From: Methyloligellaceae bacterium
GTDB taxonomy: Bacteria; Pseudomonadota; Alphaproteobacteria; Rhizobiales; CBDHHC01
Assembly: GCA_050633205.1 (NCBI GenBank)
Contig: JBOEGA010000046.1
Location: forward strand, 12,535 to 76,534
Reading direction: 5' to 3'
DNA: 64,000 nt
The translations under genes were made by a program, and so were the position numbers. The notes under the pieces are model-generated. The model saw only the letters and a list, made by a program, of their open reading frames with translations, was not told the DNA's origin and made no database searches. This document shows, piece after piece, positions 2,651-61,471 of this stretch (the first letter of the stretch is position 1; each line of letters starts with the position of its first letter).

Positions 2651-4666
2651 GTGTTGGAAATCATGGGCATCTCAAAAAAATGGTCTGAGAGCAGAAAGAA
2701 GATTTACGCTTTCCTGGACATACTCATGGATGTCCGCATAGATGAAGCCAGAAATGTCGCAGAACCGGCTAATACGGTAGCACTGTTGAATACATCAAGT
2801 GCTGTCATCCTCACTATTGCAACCTGGGAAGAGCTAAACAGAACATTTCTTATCTCCTGGCTGGCATGCTCGATATTTATATTTTTCTTTATTTGCAACT
2901 ATAATCGAAGATATATCAATAAGCTGACGGAAAAATACCTTACTCCTGGAAATATTATAAAGCTCACCATCCTAATATCTTTGATTGCTGTGCCCTGGAC
3001 AGTTATAGCTTATCCTATTTTAGGATCCGGAAGCCTTCGAAACAGCCTGCTTATTTTTTCTATAAGCATCGGCGCTGCGTCCGGTGGATGCTTCATGTTA
3101 TTCCGCATACCTCTTGCTGCATTTTTATATATTTTTGTTGCTGTGCAAGGCATTGGGGTGACGATTGTCCTGAAACATTTCGATGACCTCTGGCCAATAT
3201 TTTTCTGTGCCATCGGATATAGTATCTTTCTTATGATCGCAGTTATTTTATCCTGGCGCGTAGCAAGAGAGAGTGAAAACAACTTCATCCGGGCTTCCAA
3301 AGCAAATAAAAAACTGAGAAAGGCAAATAACGAAATCAGACAGATGGCCAGCCACGATTCTTTAACTGGTTTATTGAATAGAAAAGCATTTATAGAAAAA
3401 CTGGAACGGCGAATTGCCCAAAAAGGGAAAGAACCATTCGCTGTCTTTCTCCTGGATCTTTATCGCTTCAAAAACATCAATGACAGCATCGGACATGGCG
3501 CTGGTGATATGCTCCTCAAAATAATATCGGAACGACTGCAAAATGCCGTTACGCATAACGATATAATTGCCCGTTTTGGAGGAGATGAATTTGCCCTGAT
3601 AATTGAAATCAGCAACCACTCCAGCCAGGCCACAGATATAGCAGATAAAATACTGGCAGGTCTGAACAGGTCAGTAACAATAGAACGCTCTGTAATTCAC
3701 CCCAATGCAAGCATTGGAATAGCTTTTTTCCCAAATCAGTCAGAAACCGCAGAAGAGTTTATCAGCCAGGCCGATATGGCACTCCATCACGCAAAGGAAA
3801 ATGGCAGAGGGCAGTATCAGCTTTATAGTGGGGAAATGGCAGCCTATCTTGAGCATGCTGATAAAATAGAAAATACTCTGAGAGAGGCTATAGATGCAGG
3901 CAGAATAGAAGTCTGGTACCAGCCCAAAATTGACCTGAAAACCCAATCCATAGCCGGTGCTGAAGCTTTGTTAAGGTGCTTTGATACTCGGGGTAATATC
4001 ATCCCCACTGAGGAAATTCTCAATATAGCTGGAGATCGTGGAATAATCCCTCAGATAAGCAAAACAGTATTTGAAAAAATCAAAACCGACATCAAAAGCT
4101 GGCGCACTCAAAATGTAAAAATTGTACCAATTGCAATAAATATACACGACTTTGACTTAAAAACATCAGATTGGCTCATAAGCCAACTCAAAGACATGCT
4201 CAATGATGGTATCGATAAAAGCGATATCCAGCTTGAAGTTACAGAAGGCTGTTTCGTTGGTCGGGGATCTGATGCTGCTGCAGCTGCATTGGATATGATA
4301 GATGAAATGGGTATCAGGCTTTCACTGGATGACTTTGGTACAGGACATGCTGCACTATCTCATCTGAAAAGACTTCCCGTAAGTGAAATTAAAATAGATC
4401 AGGAATTTATAAAAGGTATCAATCAAAACGCCAGCGATGAAGCAATCACTTATGCAGCGGTTGAAATTGCCAGACGTATGGGAATTACCTGTGTTGCAGA
4501 AGGTGTCGAGAAAAAAGAGCAACTGGAACTCCTCGAAAGTCTTCTTCAGGATGGCACAACAATAATCGGTCAGGGCCACTACTGGGCCCCGCCAATGTCG
4601 GTAAACGACTTCATTAGCTTCATCGAGAGTTGGCAGCAATCAGATACACACAGCGAGGTTGGATAG
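2651..4666 (+). CDS. Membrane-anchored GGDEF-EAL protein (diguanylate cyclase/phosphodiesterase)
   Basis: 671 aa with a GTG start. The N-terminal third is multi-TM. GGDEF motifs are intact (RFGGDEFALI). EAL motifs are intact (GAEALLR, EVTE, DDFGTG, KID, AEGVE, GQG). Confidence 0.9.
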   Translation: MLEIMGISKKWSESRKKIYAFLDILMDVRIDEARNVAEPANTVALLNTSSAVILTIATWEELNRTFLISWLACSIFIFFFICNYNRRYINKLTEKYLTPGNIIKLTILISLIAVPWTVIAYPILGSGSLRNSLLIFSISIGAASGGCFMLFRIPLAAFLYIFVAVQGIGVTIVLKHFDDLWPIFFCAIGYSIFLMIAVILSWRVARESENNFIRASKANKKLRKANNEIRQMASHDSLTGLLNRKAFIEKLERRIAQKGKEPFAVFLLDLYRFKNINDSIGHGAGDMLLKIISERLQNAVTHNDIIARFGGDEFALIIEISNHSSQATDIADKILAGLNRSVTIERSVIHPNASIGIAFFPNQSETAEEFISQADMALHHAKENGRGQYQLYSGEMAAYLEHADKIENTLREAIDAGRIEVWYQPKIDLKTQSIAGAEALLRCFDTRGNIIPTEEILNIAGDRGIIPQISKTVFEKIKTDIKSWRTQNVKIVPIAINIHDFDLKTSDWLISQLKDMLNDGIDKSDIQLEVTEGCFVGRGSDAAAAALDMIDEMGIRLSLDDFGTGHAALSHLKRLPVSEIKIDQEFIKGINQNASDEAITYAAVEIARRMGITCVAEGVEKKEQLELLESLLQDGTTIIGQGHYWAPPMSVNDFISFIESWQQSDTHSEVG

Positions 4667-4787: not shown

Positions 4788-5135
4788 TCACGGATGGGGT
4801 GCCGGGAAGCCGTGTCTTTCTGAGAGGGCAGTCAGGATTTTGTCTTTGTCTGCAATGAAAGGCTGGCCTGCGTGTGTTCCGGTTTGATGGGAGAAGGTTT
4901 CTTTGTTGGCGAGAAGTAGTAGTGGTACTGACTGGTTGTCTTCGCCGACAACCTCGATCAGCTCGTGTCGTGGGCGGGGCCAGGCGATACGTTTAACTTC
5001 GAGGCGCGTGGCAAGTTCCGGGAATGAGGCCAGGACTCCTTCCAGCAAGGCGCAGTGCCAGCAATAAAACCGCTGGCCAGGATAGGCGGGATCTTCAAAG
5101 TCTGGTTGCAAAAGATAAAGTCTATCGCGCTGCAT
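4788..5135 (-). CDS. Small conserved protein, DUF3088-like
   Basis: 115-aa ORF (MQRDRLYLLQPDFEDPAYPGQRFYCWHCALLEGVLASFPEL...). It resembles my recollection of the DUF3088 family. The family assignment is from memory only. Confidence 0.5.
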   Translation of the reverse strand: MQRDRLYLLQPDFEDPAYPGQRFYCWHCALLEGVLASFPELATRLEVKRIAWPRPRHELIEVVGEDNQSVPLLLLANKETFSHQTGTHAGQPFIADKDKILTALSERHGFPAPHP

Positions 5136-5276: not shown

Positions 5277-5328
5277 TGGTTACTGGATACCTGCCTGCGC
5301 AGGTATGACAAGGGTAGTGGGGGGGGGG
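5277..5328 (+). repeat. Small intergenic repeat element, copy B, ending in a G10 homopolymer
   Basis: TGGTTACTGG at 5277-5286. Hairpin ATACCTGC (5287-5294) / GCAGGTAT (5299-5306). ATGACA at 5305-5310. Tail agggtagt followed by G10 (5319-5328). Confidence 0.55.
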
Positions 5329-5448
5329 CTTGCTTTTATGATTAATTTTTATTGTTTTTCATTAAATTTCTTTTTGCCATAAAAAGTTCCAAGGAAATCT
5401 GTAGTTGTCACGTCTTATATATAAACAAGGTATGGCAGATGGTAGATC

Positions 5449-6000
5449 GTGGCTAAAGAAGAGCAGGAAGAGCAGCGTCTTATCGAGCGAGCGGTTAGCG
5501 GAGACCGGGCGGCTTTTGGTGCGCTTGTGGGGATATTTTATCCTCGTATTTTTCGTATTGCCTATAAGTGGTGTGGTAACAAAATGGATGCCGAAGATAT
5601 CGCGCAGGATGTTTGTATCAAGCTTGGTTCTGCTATCCGGAAGTTTGAAGGGAATGCCAGTTTTTCGTCCTGGGTTTACCGGATAACGCTTAATACTGTT
5701 CGGGATTTGCAGCGGTCCAATAAGAGCCATGAGAACAAGGTATCTGCTATGGCTCTGGTGTCGGAGGAGGTTTTTGCTGCGGATCAGGAAAGCGAACTGA
5801 CGCGAAGTCAGGTCTGGCAGCGGGTGACGCAATTGCCGGACAAGCAGCGGGAGGCTGTGTTTCTGATTCATGCAGAAGGGTTAAGTCATAAGGAAGCTTC
5901 GGATGTTATGGAGTGTTCCGAGAGTACAGTGTCCTGGTATATTCATGAGGCCAAGAAACAGTTGAAGTCTTTGCTGGGCGCGGATCAGGTGGCGATATGA
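5449..6000 (+). CDS. ECF-type RNA polymerase sigma-70 family factor
   Basis: 183 aa with a GTG start. Region 2 (DAEDIAQDVCIKL...SFSSWVYRITLN) and region 4 (LPDKQREAVFLIHAEGLSHKEASDVMECSESTVSWYIHEAKKQL) are recognisable. Confidence 0.9.
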   Translation: MAKEEQEEQRLIERAVSGDRAAFGALVGIFYPRIFRIAYKWCGNKMDAEDIAQDVCIKLGSAIRKFEGNASFSSWVYRITLNTVRDLQRSNKSHENKVSAMALVSEEVFAADQESELTRSQVWQRVTQLPDKQREAVFLIHAEGLSHKEASDVMECSESTVSWYIHEAKKQLKSLLGADQVAI

Positions 6001-8174
6001 ATGAGAACGAACTGGATATCCTGAAAGAGATGGAGACTGTTGAACCTTCCGAGCAAGCGCGCGAGAAGGCTATTTATGCTGCCATGATGGCATTTGATGA
6101 AGCTGCAAAAGAAAATACCTCAGAAAGTAAAAAAAGTTTCCAAGGAATATTGTCGCCGCTGCGTCTTCTAATCAACGGACTGGAAAAAACAGGAGAGTTG
6201 ATTATGAGGAAACGTATTTTGGCTGGGGCGATGGCTTCGGTTGTTGTTGCTGTGCCGGTTGCGCTGGTTATGTTTCAGAGTGAAGTCGTTTTTGATAAAG
6301 GTGCAAATACAATATCATCTAATGATGCAGCACCAAATACTACGAAAAAAGATGACAAGTCTAAAGGATTTGCTAGTGGGGGTGGGCTTTCATCAATGAT
6401 CAAGCCTGGCCAGAAACATGAAGTTACAACAGGACAGCAAGCCGGAAGAAAAAAAGTGCCAGTTGAATTAAAACCTCAGGATATTGTTGTGGCCAAAGAT
6501 AAGGCCCGAGCGCAAAGAGGAGCTGCTGTCGAAGACAGGGCAGATGGAATAGTTCGGCAATCGCTTTCGAAACCAGCCCCGAAAAAAGAAATCAAAGCTT
6601 TTGCTCCGGCGGTGGTTCAGGAACGTTCAAGGAAGAAGCATTCGTATCTAACAGCAAGCGAGACGTCTGCACCTCAACATTTTGGAGGTTCGATTGGTGG
6701 GGATATTGAAGAGGAAGTTGACGACAGAGCCGAAGTAAAGAATCGTGACAGGTTTTCTCAGGTAAAAGATCAATCTGTTGTTTCTGTTGGTGAGAAGCCT
6801 GTTTCTACATTTTCTATTGATGTTGATACGTCGTCCTATTCGTTTATGAGGCGTACGCTTAATGGTGGGCGGATGCCGCGTAAGGACAGTATCCGGGTTG
6901 AGGAACTGATTAATTATTTCAAGTATGATTATCAGCGTCCGGAGACTGCTGAGGTTCCGTTTAAGGCAAATGTTGCGGTTTATCCTACACCGTGGAACAA
7001 GAATACCAAGTTGCTGCATATCGGGATTAAAGGACATGATATTGTTCATGCAACCAAGCCTCGTTCAAACCTTGTGTTTCTGATTGATGTGTCAGGATCT
7101 ATGGGGCAGAAGGACAAGCTTCCACTGTTGAAGAGTGCGTTTAAGATATTTGTGAACAAGCTTGATAAGGAAGACAGGGTAGCGATTGTTGTTTATGCAG
7201 GCAGGTCAGCGACTGTTCTTGAGCCTACCAGGGTTGCTGACAAGGGTAAGATATTGAGTGCGCTGAATGGGTTGAATTCCGGTGGTTCTACTGCTGGAGC
7301 ACAAGGTATTCAGAAGGCCTATGCGCTGGCGCGCAAGCATTTTGACAAGGATGGTGTTAACCGGGTCATTCTTGCGACTGATGGTGATTTCAATGTTGGT
7401 ATGACGGGCAATGATGACCTGAAGACCTATATTGAGAAGCAGCGCAAGAGCGGTATTTTTCTGTCGATCCTCGGGTTTGGGCAGGGGAATTATAATGACT
7501 CTCTTATGCAGGTTCTTGCGCAGAATGGTAATGGTACGGCCGCCTATATTGACAGCCTGAAGGAAGCGCAAAAGGTGCTTGTTGATGAGGCGAGTTCGAC
7601 TTTGTTTACTATTGCCAAGGATGTGAAAATTCAGGTTGAGTTTAATCCGGCCCAGGTTTCGGAATATCGCCTGATTGGTTATGAGACACGTGCTCTGAAG
7701 CGTGAGGATTTTAACAATGACAAGGTTGATGCCGGGGATATCGGGTCTGGCCATACGGTGACCGTAATTTATGAGATTGTGCCTGCTGGTGCTCCATCAT
7801 TGCGGTTTGACAAACTGCGTTATGGTGCAAAGAAAGATGAGGCTCAATCTGAAGGTGAGAAAAAATCCGGTGAGTATGCGTTTTTGAAAATGCGTTACAA
7901 GTTGCCAAAGGAAGACAAGAGCAAGCTGGTTACTTTTCCAATTACCAGTGAGCATGAGAAGAAAGAGGTTGCGGAAGTTTCTGCTGATATGAGGTTTGCA
8001 GCGAGTGTTGCAGCTTTTGGTCAGAAGCTTCGTGATAACAGGTTTTTGTCTGATTATAGTTTCGATGATATTCGCAAGCTTGCTGCTGGTTCGCGTGGTG
8101 AGGATGCTTATGGATATCGGAGTGAGTTTCTCGGGCTGGTAGGGCTGGCAAAGTCGCTGGAAAAGTCTGAGTAG
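5997..8174 (+). CDS. Membrane anti-sigma-like protein with an extracytoplasmic YfbK-like VWA domain
   Basis: 725 aa. The start overlaps the sigma stop (ATGA at 5997-6000). It has a short N-terminal cytoplasmic segment, one TM (ILAGAMASVVVAVPVALVMF) and a K/A/P-rich linker. The conserved pre-VWA region is STFSIDVDTSSYSFMRRTLNGGRMP...EELINYF. The VWA domain has a MIDAS DVSGS (7086-7100). A long C-terminal region resembles DUF3520. Confidence 0.8.
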   Translation: MNENELDILKEMETVEPSEQAREKAIYAAMMAFDEAAKENTSESKKSFQGILSPLRLLINGLEKTGELIMRKRILAGAMASVVVAVPVALVMFQSEVVFDKGANTISSNDAAPNTTKKDDKSKGFASGGGLSSMIKPGQKHEVTTGQQAGRKKVPVELKPQDIVVAKDKARAQRGAAVEDRADGIVRQSLSKPAPKKEIKAFAPAVVQERSRKKHSYLTASETSAPQHFGGSIGGDIEEEVDDRAEVKNRDRFSQVKDQSVVSVGEKPVSTFSIDVDTSSYSFMRRTLNGGRMPRKDSIRVEELINYFKYDYQRPETAEVPFKANVAVYPTPWNKNTKLLHIGIKGHDIVHATKPRSNLVFLIDVSGSMGQKDKLPLLKSAFKIFVNKLDKEDRVAIVVYAGRSATVLEPTRVADKGKILSALNGLNSGGSTAGAQGIQKAYALARKHFDKDGVNRVILATDGDFNVGMTGNDDLKTYIEKQRKSGIFLSILGFGQGNYNDSLMQVLAQNGNGTAAYIDSLKEAQKVLVDEASSTLFTIAKDVKIQVEFNPAQVSEYRLIGYETRALKREDFNNDKVDAGDIGSGHTVTVIYEIVPAGAPSLRFDKLRYGAKKDEAQSEGEKKSGEYAFLKMRYKLPKEDKSKLVTFPITSEHEKKEVAEVSADMRFAASVAAFGQKLRDNRFLSDYSFDDIRKLAAGSRGEDAYGYRSEFLGLVGLAKSLEKSE

Positions 8175-8190: not shown

Positions 8191-8228
8191 CTGCAGGCGG
8201 GGGGCGTGATTTATTGCGTCCCCTGCAG
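8191..8228. terminator. Imperfect hairpin between convergent genes
   Basis: CTGCAGG (8191-8197) pairs with CCTGCAG (8222-8228), plus a few inner G-C pairs. It overlaps the last codons of the minus-strand GGDEF-EAL gene. There is no clear T-tract. Confidence 0.35.
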
Positions 8229-9671
8229 TTTTATCGGGGTTGATATATTTTCAGTTGGCAGCAAACCGTCTTTTCGTTGTTGTTCCAGGAAGTGAATAAA
8301 TTCATTAAATGGCATTGGTTTGGCCCAGAGATATCCCTGGCCGATTAATGACATGTTCTGGTGGTCCATTTTTCTGAGTGCTTCGGCCTGTTGTTCGGTC
8401 TCTATACCTTCTGCAACACAATCAATTTCCAGACATCTCGTGATTTCCAGAGCAGCCATTGTGATTGCCTGATCACGGCGGTCGTGACAGATGCCGTTTA
8501 TAAATTCGCGGTCTACTTTCAGCTCACTGACTGGCAGGCGCTTCAGGTGGGACAAAGCGGCATGACCGGTTCCGAAGTCATCAAGTGACAGTTTTATTCC
8601 CATTTCATTGATTGTATCCAGAATATGGGTGGCTTCATCTGATCCACGGCCAACGAAACAGCCTTCAGTTACTTCCAGAATTATATCAGATTTTTTTACA
8701 CCGCTATTCATCATGCTTTTCAGTCGTTCCATGAGCAATTCGGGTGTTTTCAGGTCGAATGGATGGATATTGATTGATATGGGTCTGATCATCAGTTCCA
8801 TGGACTGAAGTTTTAAAATATCTTCTGCGGCTCTGCCAAATACAAAGCTGCTAATTTGTGGAACCATGCCCCTTTCTTCAGCTACGTCGAAAAGATCAAT
8901 TGTTGAGGTTTTTATAGTGTTATCTACAAACCAGCGCAGGAGGGCTTCAGCGCCCATGATTGCACCTGTTCGGATGTCAACCTTCGGCTGGTAATATAAT
9001 TGCATTTGCTGCTCAGACAAAGCTTGCCGAAGTGCAATCTCAATTTCATCAACACGAGCAAGAGATACAGCCATTCTGGTGTCGTATATTCTATAGCGTC
9101 CGCGACCTGATTTTTTAGCTGCGTGCAGGGCTATGTCTGCCAGGCGAATAAATTCAAGTGCTGAATGAGCATGGTCAGGGTAGAGGGCTATGCCTATGCT
9201 TGCATTAGGGTGAATAAGGGCGGCTTCAATTAAAACGGGGGCTACCAGGTTAGAAAGGATTCTGTCAGCAACAATTGAGGGCATTTTTTCATTGTCGTAA
9301 ATATCGATGATCAGAGCAAATTCATCTCCACCAAGGCGTGCAACTATATCAGTGTTTCTGACTGCCTTGATCAGGCGTTCCGTAACGATCCTCAGCAGCT
9401 CATCTCCTGCGCCGTGACCTATGCTGTCGTTAACATTTTTAAAGTTATCGAGATCAAGAAGAAAGACGGCAAACTTTTCGTCTTTTCTATTTTTTATACG
9501 TGCTTCCAGGTTTTCCAGGAATGCTTCCCGGTTTGCCAGTTCAGTAAGAGGGTCTCTCATAGCCATTTTTTTTATTTGTTTATTGGCTTCTATGAGTTCC
9601 GAGTTGGCGCTTGCGGCTTTCAGGAGGCTTTCTTCCCGGTCTCTGGCAATTTGCCAGGAATTCAGAACCAT
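8211..9671 (-). pseudogene. GGDEF-EAL protein, C-terminal fragment of a frameshifted paralog of 2651-4666
   Basis: 486-aa ORF with intact GGDEF (RLGGDEFALI) and EAL motifs (GAEALLR, EVTE, DDFGTG, AEGIE). Its frame stays open upstream to about 9782 and there encodes TM helices collinear with the paralog. Confidence 0.8.
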
Positions 9672-9742: not shown

Positions 9743-10237
9743 TTAAAATACTGATGACCGAGAGAATGATACTTCCTGTAAAGCTGCAAGAGGAACGCGG
9801 TACAGCATTATGCTGCCACCGGCAGACATTCCGATGGCTACTAACAGTATTAATATTGTATTGCGTGGATCTTCGGTTCCAAGAAAAGCAATTGTGAGAA
9901 TGACCCAGGGGGATGCCGAAACTAGCGTAAAGATAACCAGCCGGTTTATAGCTTTTTTAGAAACTCTGGTAATTTTGCGTGGTAAGGCCTGTGTTGATCT
10001 TTTGGCAATTAATGCGAATAAGGTGCTGGAACCGGCAAGCCAGTAAAAAAGGAAAATTGCGTTTTCTTCTGACCACAGGCAGAGCGCAATTAATAAGGCA
10101 TTTAGCGTTGCAAGAAATGCTCCCAAACGGCTGGATTTTACAATGCTAACTGCTTCTTCAGGACGGACATCCAGAAGCAACTTTAACACAGGACCAGCTT
10201 TTCCGGTGAATGTCTGCCAAATATTCAAGATATTCAT
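9743..10237 (-). pseudogene. N-terminal membrane fragment of the same frameshifted GGDEF-EAL gene
   Basis: 164-aa ORF collinear with residues 1-165 of the 2651-4666 protein (LLDVRPEEA vs LMDVRIDEA; GMSAGGSIMLYRVPLAA vs GAASGGCFMLFRIPLAA). One missing base near the AAA run at 9780-9782 would rejoin it with 8211-9671 into about 675 aa. Confidence 0.8.
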
Positions 10238-59344: not shown

Positions 59345-61471
59345 ATGTTTGATATACATACCGAAGAAGTTGAATGGGGTGGTCGGACACTCAAATTTGA
59401 AACCGGCCGCATTGCCAGACAAGCTCACGGTTCAGTGCTGGTTACTTATGGAGATACCAGCGTTTTGGCAACGGTTACTGCCGCAAAAGACGTGAAGCCA
59501 GGAATTGACTTCTTTCCCCTCACTGTAAATTACCAGGAAAAAACGTATGCCGCCGGAAAGATTCCAGGCGGTTATTTTAAACGTGAAGGCCGTCCTTCAG
59601 AGAAAGAAACTCTTGTTTCACGCCTGATTGACCGTCCTATCCGTCCGCTATTTGCACCAGGGTTTAAAAACGAGACCCAGGTTATTACGACTGTTCTGTC
59701 GCATGATATGGAAAATGATCCTGATGTTGTAGCTATGGTTGCAGCTTCTGCTGCACTGACAATATCCGGAGTTCCTTTCCTTGGTCCGATCGGCGCTGCA
59801 CGTGTTGGCTATATTGATGGCGAATATATTCTGAATCCGCTTATGGATGAGATGGAAAGCACTACGCTTGATCTTGTTGTTGCCGGTACACAGGATGCAG
59901 TCCTGATGGTGGAATCCGAAGCTCAGGAGCTTAACGAAGACATCATGCTTGGTGCGGTTGTCTTTGGCCAGAAAGAATTCCAGACAGTCATCAATGCTGT
60001 GATCAATCTTGCTGAAAAGGCTGCCAAAGAGCCGTGGGATCTTGTTGAAGTTGACAAATCCAAATATGAAAGCAGAGTTCGCGAGATGGCTGAAGAAGGT
60101 CTTCGCGCGGCTTACGAAAATCCTGAGAAAAAGAAACGTCAGGATGCGATCGGCGAAATTAAAGACAAAGTTTTTGCCGAGCTAATGCCTGATGAGGATG
60201 ACGGGTCAGAGAAAGTTCTTCTTGGCTCTGTATTCAAAGGTCTGGAAAGCGAGATTGTTCGCGGAAACATTATCAAAACGAAAGTTCGTATTGATGGTCG
60301 TGACCTGACAACAGTTCGCCCGATTGTTTCTGAAGTGGGAGTTTTACCAAGAGCACATGGTTCATCCCTGTTTACTCGTGGTGAAACGCAGGCACTGGTT
60401 GTTGCTACACTTGGTACTGGTGAAGATGAGCAGATTATTGATGCTCTTGAAGGTACTTACAGAGAGCCATTCCTTCTTCATTATAATTTCCCTCCTTACT
60501 CAGTTGGTGAAGTTGGACGTGTTGGTTTTACCGGCCGTCGTGAAATTGGTCATGGCAAGCTTGCATGGCGTGCAATGCACCCTGTTCTGCCTACTAAAGA
60601 AGAGTTTCCTTATACGCTTCGTGTGGTTTCTGAAATCACTGAATCTAACGGTTCTTCTTCTATGGCGACAGTTTGTGGTACGTCTCTAGCACTAATGGAT
60701 GCGGGTGTTCCTCTGAAACGTCCTGTTGCAGGTATTGCGATGGGTCTGATTAAAGAAGAAGACGGCTTTGCGGTTCTGTCTGATATTCTTGGTGATGAAG
60801 ATCATCTGGGTGACATGGACTTTAAAGTTGCTGGTACTGCAGATGGTATTACGTCTCTTCAGATGGATATCAAGATTACCGGTATTACTGAAGATATTAT
60901 GCGCATCGCACTTGATCAGGCGAGAGACGGTCGTGTTCATATTCTTGGTGAGATGAATAAGGCTCTTACTGAAGCTCGCCCTGAGCTTGGTGAGTTTGCT
61001 CCACGTATTGAGACACTGACTATTCCTACTGACAAGATCCGTGAAGTTATCGGTTCTGGTGGTTCGGTTATTCGCGGTATCGTGGAAGAAACCGGAGCCA
61101 AGATTGATATTTCTGATGATGGTGTTGTTAAGGTTGCAGCTTCTGACGGAGCTTCAATTAATGCTGCTATCAAGATGATCAAAGAGATTGCGTCAGAACC
61201 AGAAGTTGGAATGATATACAAAGGTAAGGTCGTCAAGATCATGGACTTTGGTGCATTTGTAAACTTCTTTGGTGCCCGTGATGGTCTGGTTCATATTTCT
61301 CAACTTGCTGATCGTCGTGTGGCGAATGTCAGCGAGATTGTTTCTGAAGGCCAGGAAGTTTTCGTTAAACTTCTCGGAATTGATGACCGTGGCAAGGTTC
61401 GCCTGTCAATGAAGGTTGTTGATCAGGAAACTGGTTCTGAGAAAGCTAAAGAAGAGGAAGATGCGGAATAA
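59345..61471 (+). CDS. pnp: Polyribonucleotide nucleotidyltransferase (PNPase)
   Basis: 708 aa with two RNase PH domains, a KH domain and an S1 domain ([17 protein letters not shown]). Confidence 0.98.

Follow-up and report, generated by a model that had tools for sequence, protein, structure and literature searches.

The 64,000-nucleotide stretch of DNA analysed here, hereafter the window, derives from contig JBOEGA010000046.1 of a Methyloligellaceae bacterium, and its positions 5449 to 8174 hold a two-gene unit in which the gene of an extracytoplasmic function (ECF) sigma factor is followed on the same strand by the gene of a membrane protein with a domain of the von Willebrand factor A (VWA) type, here called the partner. 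The two genes overlap at an ATGA (5997-6000), the sigma stop codon TGA (5998-6000) lying over the partner start codon ATG (5997-5999), as an earlier note on this locus had described. A promoter motif precedes the sigma gene, and a second copy of that motif lies inside the coding sequence of the partner, where it is followed by a Shine-Dalgarno-like (SD) site and an in-frame ATG. The features of the unit, observed and predicted, are as follows:

5389-5417, forward strand: P1, predicted autoregulatory promoter of ECF289 type (-35 CCAAGGAA at 5389-5396, 14-nt spacer, -10 CGTCTTA at 5411-5417).
5449-6000, forward strand: ECF sigma factor gene assigned to group ECF289, GTG start, 183 aa.
5997-6000, forward strand: ATGA overlap (-4), predicted to couple translation of the two genes.
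5997-8174, forward strand: full-length partner, 725 aa, putatively an anti-sigma factor that crosses the membrane once and bears a YfbK-type ectodomain.
5997-6119, forward strand: predicted cytoplasmic two-helix module (N-module), residues 1-41, the presumed sigma-binding part.
6140-6168, forward strand: P2, internal copy of the predicted sigma promoter within the partner coding sequence (-35 CCAAGGAA at 6140-6147, -10 CGTCTTC at 6162-6168).
6191-6196, forward strand: internal SD-like site AGGAGA, 7-8 nt before the internal ATG.
6204-8174, forward strand: nested open reading frame (ORF) of a predicted short isoform, residues 70-725, running from Met through RKR, the transmembrane (TM) helix and the tether to the YfbK module and lacking the cytoplasmic module.
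6216-6275, forward strand: the single TM helix, residues 74-93, ILAGAMASVVVAVPVALVMF, predicted N-in by the positive-inside rule.
6276-6737, forward strand: periplasmic tether rich in K, A, S and G, residues 94-247, predicted to be disordered from its composition and an AlphaFold2 predicted local distance difference test (pLDDT) score of ~30.
6738-7019, forward strand: vWF_A (PF12450) pre-VWA domain, residues 248-341 (Pfam).
7068-7568, forward strand: VWA domain (PF00092) with a complete metal ion-dependent adhesion site (MIDAS), residues 358-524 (Pfam).
7596-8159, forward strand: YfbK_C / DUF3520 (PF12034), residues 534-721 (Pfam).

The sigma ORF matched Sigma70_r2 (1.8e-16) and Sigma70_r4_2 (2.6e-13) in Pfam and contains sigma2 and sigma4 regions only, as defines the ECF class; in NCBIfam, the superfamily model TIGR02937 (sigma70-ECF) alone scored above its cutoff (1.5e-28; 99.5 bits against a cutoff of 42.9). 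The nearest solved structures were AlgU, SigW, RpoE and CnrH (4cxf, 1.9e-12), CnrH being less close than the other three. The group was assigned from the ECF classification of Casas-Pastor et al. 2021 in Nucleic Acids Research (PMC7826278 and its bioRxiv supplement), the portions of which used here describe ECF289 as 100% proteobacterial, with a +1 partner that combines DUF3520, a VWA domain and one TM helix, and with a predicted target promoter of the form CCCAAGGA-Xn-CGTCTxA. In the window, the +1 gene encodes a one-TM protein in which a VWA domain is fused to DUF3520, tCCAAGGAA-N14-CGTCTTA lies upstream of the sigma gene at 5388-5417, the sigma2 region contains C42 and C56 where the group is characterized by cysteine, and a protein identical to the partner is entered in the databases under vWA-domain protein, its source being a Methyloligellaceae metagenome-assembled genome (MAG), an alphaproteobacterium. 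Judged by sequence, the window sigma factor is a member of ECF289 in every group feature tested (domains, +1 gene, promoter, host and sigma2 cysteine). The pair does not differ from the catalogued one in ECF core, partner, host or promoter, and the pairing itself is not new. The same portions of the classification name the +1 VWA protein as a putative anti-sigma factor, which answers the concern raised in the earlier note that this sigma group might be known to use another regulator.

A homolog scan with the partner, at one genome per species, returned 583 relatives; all locus counts given below (80, 74, 70 and 69) are drawn from the best 80 of these 583, and neighbourhoods of 4 kb on each side of every locus were covered in the tests for regulon members and gene conservation. 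An ECF sigma gene with 30-59% identity to the window sigma factor was located directly upstream, on the same strand, at 74 of the 80 loci, the taxa being Hyphomicrobiales, Rhizobiaceae, Micavibrio, Rhodospirillales, Magnetococcales, Methylococcales, Cellvibrionaceae and Azotobacter. For the 70 sigma-linked loci that could be scored, the partner start stood at -4 relative to the sigma stop in 31 and at -8 in 12, and the interval was within 17 nt in all but 2. The earlier note had made its anti-sigma interpretation depend on the two genes being kept as neighbours in related genomes, and they are, across Alpha- and Gammaproteobacteria and Magnetococcales. The pair is also present at two Thermodesulfobacteriota loci, in contrast to the published description of ECF289 as exclusively proteobacterial; both of these, L082 (MAG JBFLWU010000030.1) and L083 (JGI Ga0104751_1001530), carry P1 and P2, each in a CAAAGGA variant.

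Six of the 80 loci lacked a sigma gene. One is a truncated contig, and the five full-length ones (L062, L067, L073, L075 and L076) encode lipoproteins with a signal peptide (..LLAGC..) and the same ectodomain, but without the cytoplasmic module. Over the 80 loci, the N-module plus TM helix strictly co-occurs with the sigma gene, and the sigma/partner arrangement is far beyond chance. No third conserved gene was found beside the pair within 4 kb on each side; the conserved unit consists of sigma and partner only. A genetically tractable carrier is plasmid p42c of Rhizobium etli CFN42 (L081, NC_007764.1 148583-151203; RHE_RS23540/RHE_RS23545), for which a literature search found no transcription-start data, and of 162 matching plasmid records, 113 are from Rhizobium.

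The partner itself is largely as the earlier note had drawn it: a protein of 725 residues (ORF 5997-8174) with an N-terminus of ~70 aa, one TM helix (74-93) and a YfbK-like module made up of a pre-VWA block, a VWA domain and a DUF3520-like tail. PF12450 (8e-35; 119.2 bits, gathering cutoff 25), PF00092 (5e-20; 72.8 bits, cutoff 23.8) and PF12034 (2.5e-72; 243.3 bits, cutoff 25) all scored above their gathering cutoffs, which places the ectodomain in the YfbK type. The MIDAS, which had been called intact, comprises DVSGS at 7086-7100 (D364-x-S366-x-S368), T432 (7290-7292) and D462 (7380-7382), the last within ATDGDFNVG at 7374-7400; these five residues are invariant in the 74 aligned homologs, and by sequence the VWA domain has the full set of MIDAS metal-binding residues. 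Fold comparison of the ectodomain returned only generic VWA relatives (ArnB, the ITIH1 inter-alpha-inhibitor heavy chain, BatB and 4fx5) and no clue to a ligand. The 20-residue hydrophobic helix, immediately preceded by RKR, resembles the lipoprotein signal peptide of the sigma-less relatives without the lipobox cysteine. Of the earlier description of the linker, "long" and "K/A-rich" stand and "P-rich" does not: over its 154 aa it is rich in K, A, S and G (K 12%, A 12%, Pro ~5%). Its length varies among homologs, and at ~150 aa in the window it is long enough to cross the periplasm.

The 74 aligned N-termini share the consensus L..L...P.P..AR..A..AAM.AF(D/E), for which AlphaFold2 predicts helices at 3-11 and 19-41 (pLDDT 84-90), followed by a low-confidence stretch at 42-52 that coincides with the start of P2. 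The earlier note had seen no obvious zinc-binding anti-sigma motif in this segment, and it is indeed not there: residues 1-73 contain neither cysteine nor histidine, H-x3-C-x2-C is absent, and the module is not a class I zinc-binding anti-sigma (ZAS) domain. A profile built from 43 N-modules gave no Pfam match at E values up to 10 and nothing meaningful against PDB sequences and Pfam (best E 0.13), and no natural fusion of sigma factor and partner occurred among the best 120 matches to a concatenated sigma-plus-partner query. Residues 1-41 are conserved as amino acids while their synonymous codons vary freely, and the reading frame is open at all 74 sigma-linked loci; by this signature they are a translated sequence in their own right. 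We infer that these residues bind and inhibit the sigma factor, and the interpretation of the partner as a putative anti-sigma factor is supported.

The promoter motif of the group was derived de novo, before the published table was read. The motif CCAAG-N17-CGTC was present in 58 of 69 regions upstream of sigma genes, where its distance to the sigma start is 36-106 nt (median ~45), and its consensus, CCCAAGGA(A/T)T..CC...CGTC(T/C)nA, equals the published ECF289 motif. P1, the copy in the window, lies 60 nt upstream of the sigma start with an A-rich tract at 5381-5385 just 5' of it. Exact matches to CCAAGGA-N15-CGTC number two in the window, namely P1 and P2 (6140-6165), the latter encoding F48-Q49-G50...R56-L57 of the partner. 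An A-tract precedes both copies (AAAAAGTT-CCAAGGAA), resembling the UP-like element which the consulted part of the supplement to PMC7826278 notes for some ECF289 subgroups.

When the same pattern was searched over the 80 loci (685 kb in total), 131 matches were obtained against ~1.3 expected, nearly all of them either belonging to P1 or falling between +655 and +745 relative to the sigma start; an exact P2 match within the partner gene was found at 67 of the 80 loci. In the R. etli locus, P1 lies at locus positions 2273-2298 and P2 at 2993-3018. Further exact copies occur in two Micavibrio-like MAGs (L019 at 896 and L050 at 2603, both on the forward strand), each 63 nt before an ORF (470 aa and 240 aa, respectively) with an N-terminal hydrophobic segment; these may be lineage-specific regulon members. 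A third match in the window (60200-60225, reverse strand) was rejected as chance, as it has one mismatch, 0.74 such matches were expected by chance, and no ORF follows it within 400 nt. Sigma-70-type promoters were not enriched in the region.

The spacing between the -35 and -10 elements of P2 is invariant at 74 of 74 loci, and the codons that spell these elements are nearly fixed:

Codon 48, third base C: 74 of 74 loci, against a gene-wide usage of 37%.
Gln49 as CAA, never CAG: 70 of 74 loci, against 30%.
Gly50 as GGA: 67 of 74 loci, against 9%.
Arg56 as CGT: 74 of 74 loci, against 13%.
Codon 57, first base C (Leu, Pro or Gln): 74 of 74 loci, against 22%.

Control positions in the same genes were free to vary: Ala29 is GCC in 30, GCG in 25, GCT in 10 and GCA in 8, Phe33 is TTC in 37 and TTT in 33, and Arg22 is written with five different arginine codons. 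Since synonymous sites are saturated in this sample, shared ancestry does not account for the fixed codons of P2. The apparent protein motif Q49-G50-x5-R56, present as [QK]G-x5-R in 114 of the 120 protein homologs listed, is by these codon patterns the promoter, its conservation residing in the DNA and not in the protein. The -35 core also covaries between the two copies, in that the CAAAGG variant is shared or lacking at both P1 and P2 in 4+59 loci and discordant in 3+1 (Fisher p=2e-4), the two Thermodesulfobacteriota loci being among those that share it. Beyond this core, within-genome likeness of P1 and P2 (spacer and the three bases after CGTC) was no greater than in permutations.

An in-frame start codon follows P2. 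ATG at codon 70 (window 6204) has its counterpart at 74 of 74 loci, 32-50 nt past the P2 -10 element and 4-8 residues ahead of the TM helix, and among the homolog sequences listed nearly all, by eye rather than by scripted count, have a methionine before the basic/TM stretch. Of 72 loci with a GGAG-type core of at least 4 nt, 67 have it 6-8 nt ahead of the internal start; an earlier and stricter count gave 51 of 74 loci, compared to 12.5% at in-frame positions elsewhere in these genes (binomial p 4e-29). The residues encoded by the core vary by lineage (Trp-Ser, Arg-Arg with the rare codons AGG AGA, Gly-Arg, Gly-Glu or Trp-Arg), and because they differ, selection at this site acts on the nucleotides. 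R. etli CFN42 has GTG as its internal codon, read as valine in the long protein, with a GGAGC site upstream, which argues that the conserved feature is a start codon and not a methionine. The residues Q49, G50, R56 and M70 (window 6140-6206, and the same place in L001-L083) would be taken for a peptide motif from protein alignments alone, whereas they trace DNA signals. Residues 48-70 of the cytoplasmic N-terminus, where the earlier note had remarked on no such element, are spelled by the internal promoter copy, the SD site and the start codon. Together these comparisons demonstrate, at the level of sequence, selection on the DNA of P2, the SD site and the start codon. An active sigma factor probably also makes, from P2, a sigma-blind short isoform (residues 70-725), the layout of which is that of the sigma-less YfbK-type precursors.

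These observations can be assembled into a circuit. In the resting state, residues 1-41 of the co-translated partner would keep the sigma factor at the inner membrane, while the ectodomain (pre-VWA, VWA with MIDAS, and YfbK_C) on its tether would bind a ligand in the envelope. Inactivation of the partner would free the sigma factor to fire both P1 and P2: from P1, more sigma and more full-length partner would be produced, and from P2, a short transcript with its own SD site and the ATG of codon 70 would yield a membrane-anchored ectodomain devoid of the sigma-binding end. The main output of the sigma factor would then be a "sigma-blind" copy of its own sensor, sensor and output sharing one ectodomain; the short isoform is proposed as the principal output because no other target is conserved near the pair. 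The short isoform might either perform the envelope work itself or compete for the inducing ligand or protease. The most likely logic would be homeostatic feedback, in which induction stops once enough ectodomain is present.

We give a rough probability of 0.6 to this interpretation, a self-contained two-gene ECF289 cassette with a nested promoter and a sigma-blind sensor copy as its main output. On balance we also favour the partner gene being a nested gene, with an in-frame sigma promoter, ribosome-binding site and start, and the system being a homeostat of the "sensor equals output" kind for a VWA/MIDAS protein that spans the periplasm. Conservation of the nested design appears to extend beyond Alpha- and Gammaproteobacteria to Thermodesulfobacteriota. 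The nested promoter, ribosome-binding site and start codon are the new part of this analysis, as we did not find them described anywhere; a literature search found no description of a nested sensor-as-output design for ECF signalling, no intragenic promoter in an anti-sigma gene that yields a shortened isoform, and no experimental paper on ECF289 or on DUF3520 with sigma factors.

Several points weigh against the cassette with a sigma-blind output. The promoter activity of P2 is deduced from sequence only, and RNA polymerase at P2 could act as a roadblock instead. Both P-values given above count loci as independent although they are related, for which the synonymous-site control is a partial answer only. 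Regulon members at a distance would escape neighbourhoods of 4 kb, and the motif sites before other ORFs at the two Micavibrio-like loci mark possible further targets. The N-module is, in its sequence, unlike any known anti-sigma domain, and the portions of PMC7826278 consulted state that the anti-sigma role of ECF289 partners awaits testing, no member having been studied experimentally.

An explanation that we regard as unlikely is that the locus is an ordinary ECF289 pair and nothing else, the internal motif, SD site and ATG giving no separate product and representing either a relic of an ancestral gene boundary or a binding site at which the sigma holoenzyme attenuates read-through into the partner gene. 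The description of ECF289 in the consulted portions of PMC7826278 fits the pair and mentions autoregulation only, with no word there of an internal promoter, an internal start or a short isoform, and in another system ECF sigma factors are reported to act as repressors at intragenic sites (PMC10771440). However, a relic would not fix codons in 67-74 of 74 lineages amid saturated synonymous neighbours, nor would it preserve a start codon, be it ATG or the GTG of R. etli, and a correctly spaced GGAG core by way of differing residues and rare arginine codons, and a roadblock requires neither an SD site nor a start codon.

Quite improbable, in our estimation, is that the partner is mainly a sigma-dependent envelope protein and no anti-sigma factor, its N-module acting as a FecR-like pro-sigma element or in membrane targeting, with the sigma factor controlled elsewhere. 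In addition to the lack of resemblance of the N-module to any anti-sigma family and the caution of the classification authors, the original classification of 2009, according to the material of PMC7826278 that was available, did not count VWA neighbours as anti-sigma factors, and P2 itself would make the ectodomain a target of the sigma factor. Yet the N-module and TM helix occur only where the sigma gene is present and are absent from the sigma-less lipoprotein relatives, the start/stop overlaps imply roughly 1:1 co-synthesis of sigma factor and partner, no other candidate regulator is conserved within 4 kb on either side, and the topology of the partner (N-in, single TM, extracytoplasmic sensor) matches that of known membrane anti-sigma factors.

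That the true gene starts at the internal ATG (6204), the upstream 207 nt being a mis-annotated extension or a separate small ORF, is very hard to sustain: two database entries (P0090 and P0095) do begin at the internal methionine, and the consulted part of the supplement to PMC7826278 calls the N-terminal anti-sigma domain of subgroup ECF289s6 "truncated", but at 74 of 74 sigma-linked loci neither a stop nor a frame change interrupts the frame between the sigma stop and the internal ATG, residues 1-41 bear the signature of translated sequence, and the partner start overlaps the sigma stop in most loci. The "truncation" of ECF289s6 might stem from gene calls at the internal start, as in those two entries, and not from a real shortening.

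The cassette with the nested start can be set beside several known systems. RsiV, RseA and RsiW are anti-sigma factors that are removed by regulated proteolysis, the common route of inactivation for single-pass anti-sigma topologies; RsiV is removed via a signal-peptidase-type site-1 cleavage. The partner shares with RsiV/SigV, RseA/RpoE and RsiW/SigW the single-pass N-in topology and the extracytoplasmic sensor, and an RsiV-like site-1 cleavage of its TM helix by signal peptidase is conceivable by analogy, because that helix is derived from a signal peptide. None of these three systems is known to have, within the anti-sigma gene, an internal start and the promoter of its cognate sigma factor. 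CnrY, whose gene lies at -2, relies for sensing on the separate protein CnrX, whereas in the window the sensor is fused into the partner. In CnrH-CnrY (ECF291, likewise split from the old ECF20) and in NepR, representatives of class II, the cytoplasmic anti-sigma part is, as predicted for the window, short, two-helical and free of a zinc motif; the N-module has two predicted helices but no detectable sequence similarity to any solved chain. The anti-sigma factors of ECF226 (ZAS plus DUF3520 plus VWA; Acidobacteria, Planctomycetes and Verrucomicrobia) differ in carrying a zinc-binding domain, where the window N-terminus has no cysteine or histidine.

With regard to the ectodomain, E. coli YfbK and lipoprotein or periplasmic YfbK-type VWA proteins have the same three domains, and their signal peptide resembles the TM helix of the window; the YfbK-type lipoproteins differ from the partner in having a lipobox cysteine and in lacking both a sigma neighbour and a cytoplasmic module. 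A literature search found no work on the function of YfbK. Membrane-tethered YfbK-like vWA proteins have been proposed as periplasm-spanning force transducers similar to TolA and TonB (PMC12204202), and the partner likewise has a TM helix, a disordered linker and a YfbK-like vWA globular domain; however, the SHLS/His motif of their TM helix is absent from ILAGAMASVVVAVPVALVMF, and tolQ/tolR-like motor genes, which accompany them, are not conserved within 4 kb of the window pair, so that the partner does not belong to this class.

Around the cassette, one further feature was recorded from a consensus scan only:

8197-8226, forward strand: terminator-like hairpin, 13 pairs followed by a T-run.

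This hairpin lies between the partner stop and a convergent GGDEF-EAL gene, whose 3' end it overlaps, and it may serve as a terminator in both directions. On either side of the cassette lies a GGDEF-EAL gene (2651-4666, forward strand, and 8211-9671, reverse strand). The latter has no N-terminal membrane part, and a 164-aa ORF just upstream of it (9743-10237, reverse strand) resembles the membrane N-terminus of the 2651-4666 paralogue, such that the two may be one split or frameshifted gene. A DUF3088 gene (4788-5135, reverse strand; 1.1e-45) diverges from the sigma operon and is not conserved beside the pair at other loci; between it and P1 is a run of 10 G (5319-5328), which might be prone to slippage or be an artefact of assembly.

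Within bacterial signal transduction, ECF sigma factors form a major class, and ECF289 is one of the many ECF groups without a studied member or a known signal. The nested promoter and start turn this group into a concrete prediction that is cheap to test, an additional transcription start together with an additional protein band, in culturable hosts with genetics such as R. etli CFN42 and R. leguminosarum with its plasmids. The case also carries a methodological warning, in that an "invariant protein motif" (QG-x5-R and a methionine before the TM helix) was a DNA signal; other anti-sigma genes with conserved short-linker motifs could be screened for embedded binding sites of their regulators. 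For ECF289 itself, the nested arrangement suggests that the purpose of the system is to control the amount of its own YfbK-type ectodomain, and the search for its signal would narrow to whatever the VWA/MIDAS module binds.

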